Part shown: piece after piece, positions 38,246 through 45,467 of the stretch
How the letters are laid out: each line of letters opens with the position of its first letter
How positions within the stretch are numbered: position 1 is the first letter of the stretch
Source: Candidatus Cloacimonadales bacterium
GTDB taxonomy: Bacteria; Cloacimonadota; Cloacimonadia; Cloacimonadales; JAIOQZ01
DNA length: 64,000 nt
Assembly: GCA_963665815.1 (NCBI GenBank)
Contig: OY762463.1
Coordinates: 126,737-190,736, forward strand
Reading direction: 5' to 3'
The notes under the pieces: model-generated
The model's database searches: none
Seen by the model: the letters and a program-made list of their open reading frames with translations, nothing else
What the model was told of the DNA's origin: nothing
Program-made: the position numbers and the translations under genes

Positions 38246-41200
38246 TTATCCAATATTAGAGAGTCTGATGAAAGTATTATACGATTTCCAATACGTTTCG
38301 ACATCAATATCTAGCTCATTATCATACATTAGTTTTAGCATATTACCTAAGAAAAAATCAGTTCTATGAAAATAATTGCTATTTAGACTCTTGCTTGATA
38401 TTGCATTATATATAATTGTTTTGATTTTTCTTCTGATCAATTCTTTTGGAAAAACTGAATACAAATCTATATATGCAAGTGTGAAACCATGTCCATCATG
38501 ATAGCATGCAACTTCTTCAGGGAGTAAATGATTTCTTTCTATGTATTCAGTATCATCATCATGTAATATCTTTATTTTTTGATGTTCATTTTGTAACTGG
38601 ATTTCTTCTTTGGCGTCTTTGATCTTGAAAAGGTCTTTGTACTCTAATGGAATTTCCAATTTTCCAAAGTCATTACTATTTATATTTATTCTGAATTTCC
38701 ATTCTTTTAAAATTCCCAGAAAGTAAGTTTTTTTTTCTGATTTAAGTACGTTTACAATATTCTTATAATCAAATTTATGAGAATATATTCTGTGTTCCAA
38801 CTCTTCAAAAATAATGCGGTCAAACAAGTCGTTGGAGATACAGTTTATAAGCTTGATAGGTAGATTAAACCAAAGAACAATTCCCTCATCATTTGTGTAA
38901 TTTTCCTGAATTATTTCTACTATTTTGCTTGAATGGTTTTCCATATACTCATTTAAAAGGTGCTTGTAGTCCTTTTCTGAAACATCTTGCACTTTCTTAA
39001 TAAAGCGTATTGAGTCTTCTTCCTTAATAAGTGATTTCAACTCGAATACTGTTAATGCATTAGGTATACTCTGAAGAGAATAATCTCTTCTGTTATGATA
39101 TTTTAACCAAATTGGATAAATAGCTTCAATATCAAAGATTCGTTTCTCGTTATTAGCCATTCTAAGGAAATTCTTCACTTCATTAATAAGTTCGAAATTG
39201 TTCATTTCTATTCTATTTTTAAGGAACTCATCCATACTGTTACTGCTATATATGTTGTCAGATTTAATTATATTACGAACCTGAAGCTCTTTGATGGCAA
39301 GATTAAGATATCTATGTAACAGATAACGAGATCTTTGCCAAGAAGGGCAATTTCTTAGAAGTAATTCTAATGCATTTTGCTTCTTGTTTTTTCGAAATAG
39401 CTCTATGCTCTTAAATAAGAAAGAGTAATCACGATGATTATCCTTATAGATGTAAGAATTGACTAATATATATACAATTTCATTTTCATCAGAAATTCTA
39501 TTTGTATCATGAAGGTTTCTTCGAAGTGCATCTTCAGGAATTTTTATCTCATGCCATTTGAAAAAAGAATCTTCTTTGATCTTCATTGCCTGAATTTCCT
39601 TAGGAAAATCAGAAGAATCGAACGGATTATCAGAATATTGCCTTGATAACAACGAGATATCATGTTCTTCGATATAAAATAACATTGCGAATAAACAGCC
39701 ATTGCTTACAATGTCATCATAACTATAGTTATTGCATAATAGATTTTTTGTGAGGAGGTACATGAAATCATGGTGGTCATAAATATGACTTCTTCCTATA
39801 ATAGAACAAATTATGGCAAGATTGTAATATTCAATTAACTCGAATTCTTCTGGATGAAAATCACTTAAACTAAGACGCAAATTGAAATAAAAGTCTGAGA
39901 TGTTTTCAAAGTCAATTGTATTTACAGTCAGCTTTTCGAATTCTCCAATATTTGAATATTTCTTTATGATTTCATAATTTTGTTCTTTTGTTAAGTTTAG
40001 CAATATGTATCTTGATAAGAAACGCCTTTCACGATTCATAATAGAACTATATACATGTGACCGGATCTGATTTTGAAGCTCAATATCTACTCCAAATTTA
40101 ATCCTAAGGAAAGTAGTAAAACTATCATGTAGTAATGATACTCTATTAAGTTGTTTTTCAAACAAGTATGGATGTTCTCTTATAAATTCAAAGATAATTA
40201 CCGAGGTCATTCGACCAAGAAAAACTTCTATTTCAGATTCCATAAAAAAAGTATGTGCACATAAGAATAGAGAAAGTGCTTTCATTCCCTTTTCTTTGGT
40301 GATTAACTTGTCGTAATAACTATTTACATCTGAAAGTTGATCTAGTTCAGGTAGTTTTTTATGCAACTTGAAATGCTCAGATATGAACTTTACAAGTATC
40401 GCATAACCCTTAGTGATTCTGTAAACTTCATTACAGATATTAATGTCCTTTATTCCATATAATTCATCTAATACTTGCCTTGTCTGATCAAAGTTCCAGT
40501 TTGGTAGAATCACTTTCTTGCATTCAAATGATCTTATGATTGGTCTGGAAAGTACGATTGTCCTACAGTATTTAGCAGCCTTAAGAATAAAATTATAATA
40601 TAAATCAAAATCCTTGTGATTGTAATTTTCTATATGATCTAGCCCATCTAATATTAATGTGTATTTTCTTTTATTAAGTTCTTCCAAAATCTCATTCTCA
40701 CTTCTGAGTATGTAATTGTGAAACACTTTTTTGGATAAATCAGAAATGAAGTTTCTGTACTTCAATCTGTTTTCATAATCATTATCTTGATTCGATATCC
40801 AAAAGCGATATAATATGGTATCTGATCCATCTTTTGTTAATATACTCACATAATGGCTTTTACCTATTCCCGGTTTTCCTTCAACATGTAAAAGGTTTTC
40901 AAATTCCATTTTCTCATAAATTACGTTAACAGTCTTATCAGTTAATTCAGTCATGTAAGTTTTTACTGTTGGGAGATCACTTAAATTAATATTTAATTTA
41001 CGAGTGTTTAGACATTTTTGAAAAAAAGATTGAAGCTGATACATTCTTTCAAAATCATTATTATATAGCGTTGCTATTTCTTCTATTAATGTATTTTCTG
41101 AATGGGAAATTACAAAATAATCATCAATTTTACGAGTTGGAATGCCTAATATATAGTATGTAGACTCAAAATCAATTTCATTCACAAAAACTACATTATT

Positions 41201-41461
41201 TTTATTTGAAAGTTTATGTTTTTTTTTACAAATGAAAAGGTTATCGTCCTTTTGCTGAAGATCATCAAGTGTAATATTCTGAATCTTTTTTATTTGAAAA
41301 TTGAACTCATCATCTTTCGTGTTCAAAACAATATCATCAAAATTGTGTTTTTCATCAGCTTCAATCCTGATACTTTCTATATCTCTTTCTACATCCATTT
41401 TTACTAATAAATAGAATGTTACTAACTGTTGATACGTGTACCCAATAAATGCATTTCTCAT
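38246..41461 (-). CDS. PD-(D/E)xK (Cap4/DUF4297-like) nuclease + P-loop NTPase + long helical C-terminus; candidate anti-phage protein
   Basis: N-terminal A..GY.YQ...E....DD....FQIK; Walker A GKPGIGKS; Walker B LILDGLD; visibly AT-richer than its neighbours. Confidence 0.75.
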   Translation of the reverse strand: MRNAFIGYTYQQLVTFYLLVKMDVERDIESIRIEADEKHNFDDIVLNTKDDEFNFQIKKIQNITLDDLQQKDDNLFICKKKHKLSNKNNVVFVNEIDFESTYYILGIPTRKIDDYFVISHSENTLIEEIATLYNNDFERMYQLQSFFQKCLNTRKLNINLSDLPTVKTYMTELTDKTVNVIYEKMEFENLLHVEGKPGIGKSHYVSILTKDGSDTILYRFWISNQDNDYENRLKYRNFISDLSKKVFHNYILRSENEILEELNKRKYTLILDGLDHIENYNHKDFDLYYNFILKAAKYCRTIVLSRPIIRSFECKKVILPNWNFDQTRQVLDELYGIKDINICNEVYRITKGYAILVKFISEHFKLHKKLPELDQLSDVNSYYDKLITKEKGMKALSLFLCAHTFFMESEIEVFLGRMTSVIIFEFIREHPYLFEKQLNRVSLLHDSFTTFLRIKFGVDIELQNQIRSHVYSSIMNRERRFLSRYILLNLTKEQNYEIIKKYSNIGEFEKLTVNTIDFENISDFYFNLRLSLSDFHPEEFELIEYYNLAIICSIIGRSHIYDHHDFMYLLTKNLLCNNYSYDDIVSNGCLFAMLFYIEEHDISLLSRQYSDNPFDSSDFPKEIQAMKIKEDSFFKWHEIKIPEDALRRNLHDTNRISDENEIVYILVNSYIYKDNHRDYSFLFKSIELFRKNKKQNALELLLRNCPSWQRSRYLLHRYLNLAIKELQVRNIIKSDNIYSSNSMDEFLKNRIEMNNFELINEVKNFLRMANNEKRIFDIEAIYPIWLKYHNRRDYSLQSIPNALTVFELKSLIKEEDSIRFIKKVQDVSEKDYKHLLNEYMENHSSKIVEIIQENYTNDEGIVLWFNLPIKLINCISNDLFDRIIFEELEHRIYSHKFDYKNIVNVLKSEKKTYFLGILKEWKFRININSNDFGKLEIPLEYKDLFKIKDAKEEIQLQNEHQKIKILHDDDTEYIERNHLLPEEVACYHDGHGFTLAYIDLYSVFPKELIRRKIKTIIYNAISSKSLNSNYFHRTDFFLGNMLKLMYDNELDIDVETYWKSYNTFIRLSNIG

Positions 41462-41541: not shown

Positions 41542-41567
41542 AAAAAAACTGCCGCGTTAACGGCAGT
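41542..41567 (-). terminator. Intrinsic terminator after the APH-RIO gene
   Basis: ACTGCCG-TTAACG-CGGCAGT followed by a T-run on the minus strand. Confidence 0.8.
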
Positions 41568-41605
41568 CTCTAATAGAAATAAGCTCAAAAAACACTCTGT
41601 ACATT

Positions 41606-43291
41606 CTACTCCATAACAGGACCGAAATACATTTCCCAGGTCTCTTTTGAGAGCTGTTCATGGTCTATCTCAAGCCCTGAGCGTGCGAAGTAGTCCGAGA
41701 TGTTCTTCATGTCCCGTTTATGCATCATCCAGGCATGCGGATTTACATCCGGATCAACACACTGAGGGAAGTCAATTATATACGGTTCTCCGTCTTTATA
41801 CATAATGTTGAAGGGGGAGAGGTCGGCATGTACTATATTGTTGTTCAACATGATATGAATGTTGTCCATCAGCTTTTTAAAGCACAGTTCAGCTTCTTCG
41901 TAATCGAGATGAACATCTTTAAGCAGGGGGGCAGCCTTGGATCCGTAACCTATAAAACCCATAATAACTGCGTCATGTGTGCAGGCAATAGGTTCCGGGA
42001 CGTTTGCCCCTATATCATACAGCTTGGATAACGTGTCAAACTCATTGCTCACCCAGGTAGTTCTGGTTGAGATTTTACCAAAGCCGGATTTCTTTTCTTC
42101 TGCTCTTAACAGTCTTGTGTCCCAAACACGACCAATGTGATATATCTTTTCCTTCTTGAAGCTCCGAAATTCCCTCTGAAAGTAAATTTTTGCTGCCAGA
42201 TATTTGTGATTCATGCTCGAATGAGCATCACAGCAGAGAACAACCGCTTCTTTACCGCGTTTCACAACTCTGGTGACATCTGTAATCAGCTTCTCGTTCA
42301 CAAAAATCTCGCAGGACTCTCCATATCGGCTCAAGTCAGTTTTCATCTTATTTTCGTTATGGATAAGAGACTCAAATATGTTTTCCAGATGCTTATTATA
42401 GCGTTTGTCAATCCTTGCATTAAGACCGTTGTATACCTGCCCGACTTCTCCCATAAAGCTGAGACAGTGGCATGCAGTGTAGAAGTCCAGCACAAGTTTT
42501 TCTTCTTCGTCGAGTCCGTACAGATCAGCAATCAGATCTGTGTATTCCGTGTCCTGATGGTCTGCCAATAACGCCATGCGTGTCAGTGCCAGATTGAAGA
42601 GCTTATCTCCAAAGCAGATGTTGTCTACGTCTACAATACCGGCAAGCTTACCGTCTTTGATGAGGACGTTCTTTGTTGTAAGATCATCCAGAAACGGTAT
42701 AGGTCTAATCCTCGAGAAATATGTGTCAAACTTGCCCAGTTGAGAGAGCAGTATGTCAGCATGTTTACTGTCGAACATACGGTTTCTGTTAATGTTTTTT
42801 CTGGCAGAGGATATTGACTTGAGTATCACCATTTTCCAGTCTGAGAGCTCCTGTATATCAGGATCTTCATAACAGCAGGCAAAACCAAAACCATCGGCTG
42901 GTCGCAGGTAACTGACAGTATCCTGCATATCTTGTACAGACTTTGCAATATCCGATTTCCGGTCATGGGTGAGATCTGTATATACCTTTCCAAGGTCAAC
43001 CCCGTCAATGTACTCAATAATCATATAAGGTGTTTCATGCCCTGTGTCCTTGTGGAATAGCTCCGGCAAAGGTAGCCCCAGAGGTTTAAGCTGTTCATAC
43101 CAGTAGCATCCACCTTGTATAAAGTTACGTTTTTCAGGTGTAGTTATACGTAGTACAACGGATTTATCTTTCATGGTAACTTTGTACACATAATTACAAA
43201 GTCCTGTTTCAAAACGTTTTATAGATTTTATATCATTATCATAATGTTTACCGATGATTTTTTCTATGTAAGTATCATCAAATCTTACCAT
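41606..43291 (-). CDS. Fusion of an APH-family phosphotransferase (aa ~1-310) and a RIO1-family kinase (aa ~316-561)
   Basis: APH part: G..N.VY.V, VLRI, YMIIEYIDG, DDLTTKN, GIVDVD...GD. RIO part: K.GKEA.V, AAKIY, NEF..L, VP.P, VHADLSPFNI, IIDFPQ, RD..N...YF. Confidence 0.85.
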   Translation of the reverse strand: MVRFDDTYIEKIIGKHYDNDIKSIKRFETGLCNYVYKVTMKDKSVVLRITTPEKRNFIQGGCYWYEQLKPLGLPLPELFHKDTGHETPYMIIEYIDGVDLGKVYTDLTHDRKSDIAKSVQDMQDTVSYLRPADGFGFACCYEDPDIQELSDWKMVILKSISSARKNINRNRMFDSKHADILLSQLGKFDTYFSRIRPIPFLDDLTTKNVLIKDGKLAGIVDVDNICFGDKLFNLALTRMALLADHQDTEYTDLIADLYGLDEEEKLVLDFYTACHCLSFMGEVGQVYNGLNARIDKRYNKHLENIFESLIHNENKMKTDLSRYGESCEIFVNEKLITDVTRVVKRGKEAVVLCCDAHSSMNHKYLAAKIYFQREFRSFKKEKIYHIGRVWDTRLLRAEEKKSGFGKISTRTTWVSNEFDTLSKLYDIGANVPEPIACTHDAVIMGFIGYGSKAAPLLKDVHLDYEEAELCFKKLMDNIHIMLNNNIVHADLSPFNIMYKDGEPYIIDFPQCVDPDVNPHAWMMHKRDMKNISDYFARSGLEIDHEQLSKETWEMYFGPVME

Positions 43292-43293
43292 AG

Positions 43294-43354
43294 TATTCTC
43301 CTGTTTTATAAACGGGAGATATACTCAGATTTTTTTTAGCTTCTGAGCTCCCGT
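43294..43354 (-). promoter_or_regulatory. Alternative hairpins controlling the RBS of the APH-RIO gene
   Basis: In the mRNA, ACGGGAG-CUCAGA pairs with UCUGAG...CUCCCGU. Alternatively CUCC-C-GUUU pairs with AAAC-A-GGAG, which contains the RBS. Confidence 0.65.
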
Positions 43355-43452
43355 CTACTATGTAGTTCACAATTCCATAAATTATTATTCATATATATTA
43401 GTGTGTGACAATCCTTCATTCCTTCTGTGTTATTTACTGATACACGGACCAT
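43336..43452 (-). CDS. Putative leader peptide uORF3 (38 aa, MVRVSVNNTEGMKDCHTLIYMNNNLWNCELHSRRELRS)
   Basis: AAGGAG RBS 6 nt before the ATG; the stop codon lies inside the downstream switch hairpin. Confidence 0.55.
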   Translation of the reverse strand: MVRVSVNNTEGMKDCHTLIYMNNNLWNCELHSRRELRS

Positions 43453-43479
43453 AGTTTACTCCTTTTGTGTTTTGTTTAT

Positions 43480-43566
43480 AAAAAAAAGCCCACGAAACCG
43501 GATAGTCCCGTGGGCATTCAAAGTGCTTATTATATATTATGGGATTAGCCGGTACAGACCAATCCC
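43480..43566 (-). promoter_or_regulatory. Transcription attenuator (1:2 hairpin, 2:3 antiterminator, 3:4 terminator)
   Basis: 1:2 is GGGAUUGG...CUAAUCCC (43566-43541). 3:4 is GCCCACGGGA...UUUCGUGGGC-U8 (43515-43480). Segment 2 ACCGGCUAAUCCC is complementary to segment 3 GGGACUAUCCGGU at 11 of 13 positions. Confidence 0.75.
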
Positions 43567-43615
43567 GTATTTGAAATGTCTATTGTAAAAGAGTTCTTTG
43601 TATGATATATATTTT

Positions 43616-43636
43616 TTATGTTATCTTATATTTCAT
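43616..43636 (-). CDS. Possible leader peptide uORF2 (MKYKIT)
   Basis: ATG AAA TAT AAG ATA ACA TAA with only a weak GGT SD; about 50 nt upstream of the attenuator. Confidence 0.3.
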   Translation of the reverse strand: MKYKIT

Positions 43637-43711
43637 TTTACCAAATTATCAATATGAATTTGGAATATTTACAAAGTTCTTTAATTGGATTCAAACGTTA
43701 AGAGATTGATC

Positions 43712-43750
43712 TTAGATTATTTGGATTCCTTTTTCTAATTTAAATTGCAT
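43712..43750 (-). CDS. Putative leader peptide uORF1 (MQFKLEKGIQII)
   Basis: Strong AAGGAGG RBS 5 nt before the ATG. TTGACA lies at 43810-43805 upstream; the -10 box is weak. Confidence 0.5.
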   Translation of the reverse strand: MQFKLEKGIQII

Positions 43751-43820
43751 CTTTGCCTCCTTAACGTTTTTTTATTAAATCAATATTGAGTAGTATTCTA
43801 AATCTGTCAAATAAATTATG

Positions 43821-45305
43821 TTATTCTTCGAAAGACACCATAAACGTATCATCTGCATACTCAGTGAGTTTCACATTTCTGTTTTCTCGATATTTGTGGA
43901 GAATCTCATCTATTCTATCAAGTGAAGTTGAGATTCTGTCGAAGTGTTTTTTATTTCTGCTGTTCAAGTTGCCTATCTGAAGTTCTATCATCTCCATATT
44001 GCCCTTAATCACAGTCAAAGGCTGGTTAAGCTCATGATTCGCTGTTACAGCCATAGCATAAACCGTGTTCTTTCGAGCAAGAATCCTGATCTCTTCCTGA
44101 GCCTTTTCCAGTTCTTCATTTCTTTTTTTTAATTCATCATTTTTTTGTTCAAGAATCTTGTGTTCACGCTCTTTCTGCTCCATTTCAAATTTTGTTCGCA
44201 GTTCCGCGGATTTCTCTGAAAGATTTTCATTAAAGATTTCTTCCTGCAGATCGAGTAACTCCTGATACGTTTTTACTTCACCTTCATAATCTTTTCTGGC
44301 ATGTAAAATCTCGGTTTTATTCCTCAATACCAGCTTCAGTTCTGCAAGATTCCCCTGATCTCGAGTAAGTTTTTCAGATTCTGTTATCTCTTTGCATGCC
44401 ATATCTAACTTGTCCTGACGATAGTAATTCATGGCAATATTGAGTTTCAACTTTGGCAGTATGGTTGTCATCTTATATTCATTGCACAATTTAAGTGCTT
44501 TATCAAATTCTGTTTGAGCTTTATCATGAAGTTTGAGTTCCCTGTAAGAAGCTCCAATGTTCATAGTGGAAAGTGCAATCCACTCATGGTTTATATTCTG
44601 TTCTATAAGATAATCTCTGGCATGAGAGAAAAAATCAATTGCTTTATCGTATTTATGATTTGAGAAGTAATGTGTACCAAGGTTGGCGAGGAATGCACTC
44701 TCAAGTCGCTTATTGTTCTGCTCAGAAGAGATTTTCAAACCCTTAAGTCCTATTTCCTCAAAAGATTTCTGATCGTTAATTGCATAAAAATATGATTGCA
44801 TGTTAATATAGATATCAGGAAGTATAGCCTGCTTATCAAGTCTTAAAGCAAGTTCTTCAGCCAGCAGATAGTTCTTGTATGCTTCTTCCAGATTATTAAT
44901 GTAAACATTGCACAGTCCAATATTGATATGGACATTTATCAGGTGTTTACAGTCTGGATCACCTTGAGATAGAATGTATTCTTTCAATTTAAGAAGGCTT
45001 TCTAATGCTTCCTGATGCCTGCCCGAGTTAATTGTCAGAGCAGCTATTCTGTTTCTGGTTATAATAATCTTTTCAAAAACATCTGTTAACTCCCAGTATT
45101 GAAGAAGCTTCTTCTCCAGAATAAAGGCTTTTTCTCTTTCTGTTGTTCTCCAAATTCTGGCAGCCAGCTCACCGATTGCCATAGGGAGATCCTGATTTTT
45201 TTCAAACATACTGAAGAGTTTATCCAAATCTATCGAGTTAAAGATTTCAATGGGACTCCGGGATTCAGAATTAATTTCTTTAATTAAAGATTCAATATAT
45301 TCCAT
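43821..45305 (-). CDS. TPR-repeat protein with a C-terminal HisKA dimerization/phosphoacceptor domain and no ATPase domain
   Basis: TPR repeats, coiled coil ELRTKFE.EQKE.E, ANHELNQPLTVI.G; the protein ends about 70 aa after the His. GGTGG RBS before the ATG at 45305. Confidence 0.8.
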   Translation of the reverse strand: MEYIESLIKEINSESRSPIEIFNSIDLDKLFSMFEKNQDLPMAIGELAARIWRTTEREKAFILEKKLLQYWELTDVFEKIIITRNRIAALTINSGRHQEALESLLKLKEYILSQGDPDCKHLINVHINIGLCNVYINNLEEAYKNYLLAEELALRLDKQAILPDIYINMQSYFYAINDQKSFEEIGLKGLKISSEQNNKRLESAFLANLGTHYFSNHKYDKAIDFFSHARDYLIEQNINHEWIALSTMNIGASYRELKLHDKAQTEFDKALKLCNEYKMTTILPKLKLNIAMNYYRQDKLDMACKEITESEKLTRDQGNLAELKLVLRNKTEILHARKDYEGEVKTYQELLDLQEEIFNENLSEKSAELRTKFEMEQKEREHKILEQKNDELKKRNEELEKAQEEIRILARKNTVYAMAVTANHELNQPLTVIKGNMEMIELQIGNLNSRNKKHFDRISTSLDRIDEILHKYRENRNVKLTEYADDTFMVSFEE

Positions 45306-45467
45306 AATAACCACCAACTGTATTATTGTTTATAATATATGTGTAATTCAAAAATTAGACTATAAATAAATTTTTAATGTAAGAGTTGTAAATGAATATT
45401 TCTTCAAAAAGATGTAAGGATGTTAAAAAGAAGCAGTCGAAAATACATGATTACAAGAAATTAGCAC

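Follow-up and report, generated by a model that had tools for sequence, protein, structure and literature searches.

Several bacterial genes are controlled by leaders in which translation of a short upstream open reading frame (uORF) decides on transcription termination. In Listeria monocytogenes the leader rli80 of hflXr (lmo0762) is described as comprising a short uORF, an anti-antiterminator, an antiterminator and an intrinsic terminator, and as being induced by ribosome stalling (PMC6310831). For the uORF attenuators of the ARE-ABCF genes vmlR, cplR and vgaL it is reported that ribosome arrest shortly after initiation relieves premature termination, and that a translational tier is often added (10.1101/2022.12.05.519065). 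The bmrB-bmrCD leader of Bacillus subtilis forms alternative stem-loops before a two-gene ABC exporter and is described as inducible by protein-synthesis inhibitors (PMC4191407). In the his attenuator of enterobacteria a ribosome at the leader stop codon causes termination and an earlier stall causes antitermination (PMC10065794). Here we analyzed a stretch of 64,000 nucleotides from Candidatus Cloacimonadales bacterium (assembly GCA_963665815.1, contig OY762463.1, positions 126,737 to 190,736), called the window in the following; its genome is referred to as G000. The window carries a gene in which an APH-like phosphotransferase domain is fused to a RIO kinase domain, preceded by a leader that shares all four elements of rli80. 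With moderate confidence we read this leader as a ribosome-coupled attenuator that is turned on by an early stall on its uORF, and the encoded protein as part of the translation-stress response of the order, with a RIO half that probably acts on the ribosome and an APH-like half that is probably an accessory small-molecule kinase.

The leader lies upstream of the fusion gene; all coordinates refer to the window and all features to its minus strand unless stated otherwise. A sigma-70-type promoter (TTGACA, 17 nt, AATATT) was assigned at 43782-43810. The promoter scan alone discriminated weakly, with 16 promoter-like sites versus 9.6 in shuffles; the assignment also uses the recurrence of TTGAC, which was found 57-91 nt ahead of the ATG of uORF1 in 16/16 leaders. 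Segment 0 (43756-43769) consists of the strong Shine-Dalgarno (SD) sequence of uORF1 and the bases 5' to it, and pairs with 43693-43704 when free of ribosomes (duplex -12.6 kcal/mol, z -2.5 in the window; z <= -2 in just 9/18 leaders). It is followed by uORF1 itself (43712-43750, 12 codons and TAA). Its length is conserved at 11-14 codons across leaders, its peptide is not, and the motif RLR occurs in 0/18 RIO uORFs. Within uORF1 an SD-like AGGA (43727-43730) lies 9 nt before the last sense codon. Segment 1 (43702-43711) begins right after the uORF1 stop codon and pairs with segment 2 on the path to expression (ON), as recovered by a column scan. Segments 2 (43557-43566) and 3 (43541-43550) form the anti-antiterminator hairpin 2:3 (43541-43566), assigned from pair counts. 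The antiterminator 3:4, in which 43498-43509 pairs with 43541-43552, is the alternative to the intrinsic terminator 4:5, which with its U tract spans 43480-43515 and whose hairpin is predicted at 43488-43515.

This layout recurs at related loci. The combination of TTGAC, GGAGG-ATG and an 11-14-codon uORF was present at 16/16 loci with a directly upstream spacer, fused and RIO-only alike. At all 18 RIO loci examined a promoter and an 11-14-codon uORF with a strong SD stood upstream of an intrinsic terminator, and chained hairpins ended in that terminator. The leader is better conserved than the fusion, RIO-only loci carrying it without the APH half. L053 is a duplicate of L013, and the leaders of G143 lie at contig ends and were kept outside the leader set.

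The following course of events is proposed. An unhindered ribosome would read the 12 codons to the stop codon and cover segment 1, where it may be held by the internal SD-like motif; hairpin 2:3 would then pair, segment 4 would stay free and the terminator would form (OFF). If the ribosome were arrested on the start codon or close to it, it would instead cover segment 0 and leave segment 1 free. Helix 1:2 would form first, 3:4 would follow and there would be no terminator (ON). With no ribosome at all, 0:1 would form in the window and the leader would be OFF, while most relatives, which have no strong 0:1 helix, would be ON. This is the logic of the his attenuator. In the latter as many as six segments (A-F) pair alternately along a chain, and its topology is like the 0:1, 2:3 and terminator of the window. 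However, the RIO leader has no run of cognate codons, precedes no biosynthetic operon and stayed below threshold in an Rfam scan, in which no family reached threshold and His_leader was best (24.8 bits versus 49, E 0.35). It would work like the his attenuator and is not a member of that family. Differences from the other systems are also evident. The uORF of rli80 is described as overlapping the anti-antiterminator and carrying RLR (PMC6310831), whereas the RIO leader has an additional helix from segment 1 at the stop codon, no conserved peptide and a kinase fusion as target. The uORFs of vmlR, cplR and vgaL are given as 3-4 codons long with a conserved peptide (10.1101/2022.12.05.519065), those of the RIO leaders having 11-14 codons, with conserved length and the internal SD-like motif instead. 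As in bmrCD, ABC exporter genes are involved, since L006 and L007 place the fusion in ABC operons; bmrB-bmrCD differs in its uORF and its RNA, and the abstract mentions no kinase in that operon (PMC4191407).

The first-pass annotation of this DNA had proposed an attenuator leader and asked for its conservation in relatives. The design was indeed conserved, and compensatory changes were found across 15 aligned leaders; L051 was omitted from this alignment because of repeated hairpins. An unbiased column scan recovered 2:3, the terminator and the long-range helix 1:2 from the uORF stop codon. Helix 2:3 was 100% paired with two-sided change at 5/10 pairs, the terminator helix 98.5% paired with two-sided change at 5/9 pairs, and helix 1:2 94% paired with two-sided change at 4/10 pairs. 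The core of 3:4 was the weakest helix (86% paired, two-sided change at 2/5 pairs). Over all cells the OFF structure was paired to 99.3% and the ON structure to 91.5%, versus 25-65% in slid controls. A variant leader at a RIO-only locus, L051:1300-1480, contains a tandem array of three to four repeated hairpins, and 1:2 was not recovered in it. In L013, L049, L050 and L052 a U tract also follows the 2:3 hairpin, giving tandem terminators.

Folding calculations agreed in part with the proposed switch. The leader of the window folded more stably than 100/100 shuffles (z -3.6), its ribosome-free centroid containing 0:1, 2:3 and the terminator. The 1:2 duplex had z <= -2.6 in 15/17 parsed leaders. 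In transcripts cut after segment 2, 1:2 formed in 20/22 leaders when segment 1 was free. In the window the ON path and 2:3 had energies of -42.7 and -43.2 kcal/mol with a ribosome on codon 1, and of -46.5 and -51.8 without one; the deficit of the ON path was thus 0.5 kcal/mol at codon 1, 4.8 at codon 6 and 5.3 without a ribosome. Because the ON path came near 2:3 solely with the ribosome on codon 1, these modeled energies point to initiation-stage arrest as the trigger. On equilibrium folding up to the terminator loop, seven leaders switched (L002, L005, L008, L009, L013, L052 and L162).

A number of results weigh against this reading of the leader. The number of two-sided pairs in the ON structure (6) was no better than in shuffles (275 of 500), the register of 3:4 varied between clades, and the aligned leaders are kin, which overstates the covariation counts. 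The modeled ON state is marginally within reach in the window, the ON path already being 4.8 kcal/mol worse with a ribosome at codon 6. Seven leaders (the window, L001, L003, L007, L010, L011 and L058) showed no equilibrium switch. Among the other seven, four were unparsed, two were mis-parsed and an ABC-F leader was ON in all states. At equilibrium the full terminator won in 16/16 cases (P >= 0.93). Since the finished terminator dominates at equilibrium, the switch would need co-transcriptional kinetics. Two computed quantities have to be read with care: the whole-leader equilibrium scan with automatically picked terminators was noisy, taking 2:3 as the terminator in L013, L051 and L052, and the switch count of 15/22 arises partly by construction, as blocking segment 1 abolishes 1:2, and is not independent support.

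At equilibrium the window folded OFF in every ribosome state, as would be expected if the leader were a fixed damper, with a terminator that holds expression low and alternative pairings that are by-products of short repeats. Segment 1, however, abuts the uORF stop codon, and although 60-150 nt separate it from segment 2, the two segments covary across clades as well as in leaders held out of the alignment; we regard a mere damper as very improbable.

The sensor of the attenuator is probably generic, responding to inhibitors of initiation or early elongation or to any slowdown rather than to a specific drug and sequence, because neither a peptide nor a run of codons is conserved in the uORF. 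Its internal SD-like motif, located 6-22 nt before the uORF1 stop codon, was found in 18/18 leaders, as opposed to 20% of 2277 pre-stop windows of long reading frames. This pattern was picked post hoc, after viewing the data, and the loci are related. In different families the motif sits in different reading frames. The lack of RLR or any other conserved motif in the RIO uORF peptides also agrees with another explanation, in which not antibiotics but physiological conditions that slow translation (starvation, Mg2+, cold, low energy) switch the helices, or a protein bound to them does so, possibly RIO in an autoregulatory manner, and the resistance-like neighbors described below are incidental. 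In 19/22 leaders 1:2 was predicted without any ribosome (weakly in the window), so that failed initiation would be enough. Repeated GGA-like motifs, which are known as CsrA sites, could be protein sites. On the other hand, AGGT and AGGC are frequent forms of the internal motif, in agreement with anti-SD pairing, and the spacing of the motif to the stop codon is SD-like; furthermore, the same design stands before hflX with RLR uORFs and before an ARE-like ABC-F gene. We consider switching by such a slowdown or by a protein, in place of antibiotics, improbable.

In order to find this design elsewhere in the order, the covariance model (CM) R1 was built from two hairpins of the RIO leaders. It matched in 29/151 order genomes; in G000 the E value fell below 0.01 at the present locus only. 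The leaders at the operon heads of L006 and L007, where the same design was present, were outside the training set of the model and gave E values of 0.002 and 0.49. Among 14 new matches inspected, two had the full design, one before HflX and one before an ABC exporter. The remaining 12 (L164-L175) proved to be simple terminators that lack a uORF arrangement of this kind. The protein behind the HflX leader scored above the cut-off of TIGR03156. When the hflX leader was used as the query of a DNA search, one new match, L195, proved genuine, and six other matches that were inspected or listed were due to chance, L200 lying outside this set. In total the design was found before hflX in G000, G119 and G121 and before an ABC exporter in G172. 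The uORFs of these hflX leaders (L162, L178, L195) and of the ABC leader (L163) contain RLR, described as a macrolide-sensing signature (PMC6310831). The hflX leader of G000 (L178:917-1160; G000:C1 about 3894420-3894660, plus strand) comprises 1:2, 2:3, 3:4 and the terminator with a 9-codon RLR uORF. One of the two hflX copies of G000 has the leader; for the second (L179), no such leader was present in the stretch read. The leader-bearing hflX genes (L178, L195, L162) are candidate hflXr-like genes of Cloacimonadales.

A scan of G000 reduced 243 intergenic SD-preceded uORFs to 9 genes with a terminator and to 3 with a TTGAC promoter, namely the fusion gene, an ABC-F gene and an ABC exporter gene. 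The ABC-F protein (L177:175-560; G000:C1 3291470-3293468, plus strand) reached 470 bits with NF000355, above the ribosomal-protection-like cut-off. Its leader contains a 7-codon uORF, 2:3, a terminator for which a perfect antiterminator of 10 bp exists, and another uORF, and represents a related design with 2:3, 3:4 and the terminator, 1:2 being weak. The translation-stress context that the first-pass annotation had suggested is supported by the occurrence of this leader design before hflX, ARE-like ABC-F and ABC exporters. The exporter gene of G000 (L145; G000:C1 3672462-3672700, minus strand) stands behind a 32-codon uORF and a terminator in a bmrB-like arrangement, and homologous exporters head the operons of L006, L007 and L163.

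Outside the phylum, 59 of 80 metagenome RIO loci had enough upstream DNA for a survey, which is blind to SD-masking switches without a terminator or a strong SD. A general RIO leader was not shown in these 59 loci, and the rarity of the leader there also weighs against our reading: an upstream terminator was found at 5/59 loci with a uORF before it at one, and short SD-preceded uORFs occurred at 6/59 loci versus 49/853 control windows. Three high-GC RIO loci (L066, L067, L074) have SD-preceded uORFs of 16-17 codons 106-139 nt before the RIO match and possibly carry leaders of another type.

The gene controlled by the leader is a single reading frame of 561 aa (41606-43291, minus strand) without interruption. 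PF01636 (APH) matched residues 24-259 with 62.1 bits (cut-off 23.2) and PF01163 (RIO1) residues 360-545 with 136.4 bits (cut-off 22). The motifs DDLTTKN and DVD in the APH half and HADLSPFN and DFPQ in the RIO half were present. The one-frame fusion that the first-pass annotation had read from the letters was thus borne out, as was the Pfam check that it had called for. Residues 1-311 (42359-43291) constitute an APH/ChoK-fold phosphotransferase domain of the LDDxTTKN subfamily, residues 312-319 (42335-42358) a short low-confidence linker, and residues 320-561 together with the stop codon (41606-42334) a bacterial RIO kinase/ATPase domain; both domains were assigned from Pfam, alignment and fold matches. 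In the full-length structure model (pLDDT 84, pTM 0.56) the linker was disordered (pLDDT < 50). The gene ends at an intrinsic terminator of its own (41544-41571), again as annotated.

A stop codon at the junction in relatives would have meant two separate genes. It was looked for and none was found. Both halves were spanned by P0001-P0017, that is by 17 of the 120 matches listed out of 131, at 48-91% identity, and by full-length fusions at 12 of 34 genome loci, all titled Cloacimonadota. Two further matches carried both Pfam numbers, yet were RIO-only by sequence. Two separate genes were consequently rejected, as was initiation within the frame at Met316 (42346); this residue is Met in just 7/18 aligned fusions, whereas both active sites are invariant in all 18. 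In a phylum survey 19/232 genomes had a match, 14 fused and 5 RIO-only, the latter all within the family of the window. Among the 14, the gene of G143 lies at contig ends and that of G108 is broken near residue 469. This interruption, at L011:5971-7670, falls inside the RIO domain and is due to a frameshift or an assembly error. Because only 1 of the best 150 representatives, among 1.84 billion, covered both halves, the fusion looks confined to one order of Cloacimonadota.

The RIO domains of the phylum grouped in a single clade (100/100), within which the solo forms fell into an unresolved fork, unnamed bacterial RIO proteins being the only outgroups, and in a quick tree the fused APH halves formed a clade (99) that includes one solo APH, P0018. 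Either order of fusion and loss is compatible with these trees. The RIO domain is the core and the APH-like half an accessory, judged from the five related genomes that carry the RIO half alone. These genomes keep the leader as well, and the APH half of the bifunctional protein envisaged by the first-pass annotation is thus not obligatory. Operon compaction deserves nearly even odds: two co-induced independent enzymes would have lost a stop codon once in the order and could split again, which is compatible with the attenuator. The disordered linker and the pTM of the model, the solo forms in both trees and the single representative spanning both halves agree with it, as do the stand-alone APH relatives, of which 1/21 loci (L027) has a RIO gene in the fetched DNA, 3 kb away, and 2/21 genomes a RIO match; the link between stand-alone APH and RIO is thus weak. 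Against compaction, the fusion has been kept at about 48% identity over five families, in which the linker does not vary in length, and a search of 203 order genomes found the APH subfamily in no other than fused form, in the same 14 genomes as the fusion.

The sequence and fold features of the RIO family were found in the RIO half, namely the domain score, the intact catalytic set and the fold. Invariant in 18/18 aligned fusions were K347 of the GKEA P-loop, K368, E417, H488-x-D490-L-S-x-x-N495 and D507-F-P-Q; the roles of these residues (P-loop Lys, beta3 Lys, alphaC Glu, HxDLSxxN, DFxQ Asp) were assigned by analogy. The fold matched RIOK3 (Z 26.1, rmsd 2.1, 223 aligned residues) and A. fulgidus Rio1 (Z 25.1). 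The domain shares its fold and all catalytic motifs with the Rio1, RIOK3 and RioB/PA4780 family and differs in bearing an N-terminal APH-like domain and in missing the equivalog cut-off of the best NCBIfam model, the PA4780 RIO1-like family NF041645 (168.3 bits versus 350). The RIO-only protein of L013 reached 156.7 bits against the same cut-off. What bacterial RIO (RioB) does in vivo is described as poorly characterized (PMC5815136). By analogy to Rio1 and Rio2, the RIO half is probably an ATPase that binds to ribosomes and acts on them.

The APH half belongs to the APH/ChoK (ELK) phosphotransferases by PF01636 score and fold. Its best fold matches were APH(2'')-IIIa (Z 22.1, rmsd 3.3, 282 aligned residues, 14% identity) and APH(4)-Ia (Z 21.9), with 14-15% identity to both. 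D203, K207, N208, D221 and D223 were invariant in the aligned fusions. The catalytic Asp, the Asn and the metal-binding Asp are therefore shared with APH(2''), APH(4)-Ia and other ELK small-molecule kinases. In contrast, the canonical HxDxxxxN loop was not found: its His is replaced, by Leu here and by Leu or Phe in the alignments, with D203, N208 and D221 kept, and the loop contains an invariant Lys. From the alignments, the loss of His is a trait of the widespread unnamed subfamily with the LDDxTTKN-type loop to which the domain belongs, not decay. The APH(3') cut-off was not reached (NF033068, 32.6 versus 205 in NCBIfam). Asp or Arg at position DFG+1, described as signatures of APH2 and APH3, respectively (PMC4702295), was absent; the residue is N224 here and N, S, T, Q or E in the fusions. 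Stand-alone APH relatives had scattered neighbors including GNATs, one AAC(3) and GrpB, and among the 60 of 98 scanned no consistent neighbor was found. These last two results weigh against a small-molecule kinase. The APH-like half is still probably an accessory small-molecule kinase, an antibiotic kinase being a possibility and not a finding.

The invariant K207 admits a different function of the protein. A Lys or Arg in the catalytic loop has been tied to phosphorylation of amino-acid hydroxyls (PMC4702295), PA4780 is listed simply as a Ser/Thr kinase (PMC11197903) and the function of RioB is given as unknown (PMC5815136). With the leader working as described, the fusion could then be a protein kinase for stress signaling or slowing of growth, its RIO half not acting on the ribosome and its APH-like half phosphorylating an amino-acid or protein hydroxyl. 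K207, however, lies at D+4, where it may not take the place in space of the lysine of eukaryotic-type protein kinases (ePK). The RIO half also retains K347 in its GKEA P-loop, and in Rio2 the P-loop lysine is described as contacting rRNA (PMC5815136), the correspondence of the two residues being inferred. Moreover, its best folds are the ribosome-bound RIO1 and RIOK3. A signaling kinase thus appears unlikely, and we prefer a RIO half on the ribosome.

Besides uORF1, the first-pass annotation had counted two further uORFs and a second, mutually exclusive structure switch. A second uORF with its own SD was confirmed, uORF2 (43336-43452, 38 codons), which had no Pfam match and whose peptide is not conserved beyond the genus. 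The third could not be upheld: the other short frames, including a 21-codon TTG frame over the terminator, had no GGAGG or AGGAG SD and were taken as chance, with no counterpart of a third uORF in the aligned leaders. uORF2 follows the terminator at fused loci only and is absent from RIO-only leaders. Its end lies 44-45 nt ahead of the main start codon in the window and in the same-genus locus L001, inside a predicted SD-masking switch; at the nine other fused loci whose leader is directly upstream, it runs across the main start out of frame. In this tier-2 switch (43298-43354), pairing of 43348-43354 with 43310-43318 would free the main SD, and 43310-43318 would otherwise mask the SD at 43298-43306. 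The modeled probability of an unpaired SD was 0.75 without a ribosome and 0.20 with a ribosome on codons 30-38 of uORF2. The switch was predicted in the window and L001 only. The transcriptional switch covaries, and of the proposed multi-tier leader tier 1 alone is conserved. Basic small ORFs of 47-48 aa, clearly alike and without Pfam match, lie directly after the leader terminator in L007:875-1018 (plus strand) and L058:15783-15929 (minus strand); their product could be a small ribosome- or RNA-binding protein.

The locus was also annotated as a self-contained unit, which does not fit its relatives. L006 and L007 have the fusion within ABC/GNAT operons that are headed by the leader, and a GNAT gene comes directly after the fusion in L008-L011. 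Among the genes that share an operon with the fusion are those of ABC exporters, GNATs, methyltransferases and one NF000355 ABC-F, the last immediately downstream of the fusion in L006. In the window the upstream neighbor (43821-45317, minus strand) encodes a TPR and HisKA protein in which no HATPase domain was detected; it is conserved upstream in L001. The downstream neighbor (38246-41461, minus strand) encodes 1071 aa, has a low GC content (about 0.30) and gave a weak NTPase-like match. In L001 the corresponding position after the fusion is occupied by apparent cas9, cas1 and cas2 genes (by eye), and this position is therefore probably a variable defense slot.

Searches of the open-access literature, supplements excluded, gave no description of a leader before bacterial RIO genes, of an APH-RIO fusion or of attenuators in Cloacimonadota. 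The control principle is already known. New are the target of the attenuator, the additional stop-codon helix with its internal SD-like motif, and the fusion, which occurs in one order only. A far-reaching version is conceivable, in which RIO is an unrecognized ribosome rescue or drug-tolerance ATPase induced with HflX and ARE-ABCF, a peptide-independent attenuator times arrival at the stop codon and clamps the ribosome by the internal SD, and the fused LDDxTTKN kinase is a new antibiotic-inactivating class brought to the ribosome by RIO; we put it forward tentatively and consider it rather unlikely. The covarying leader, whose design recurs before hflX and before a ribosome-protection-like ABC-F, makes it likely that one RIO lineage belongs to the translation-stress response. 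It represents a new RNA family without Rfam entry, and the internal SD before the uORF stop codon is a candidate design element. For the large unnamed APH-like subfamily, which could hold small-molecule or antibiotic kinases, it provides a regulatory hint, and for the little-studied bacterial RIO kinases it gives a clue that they may help cells to cope with translation stress.

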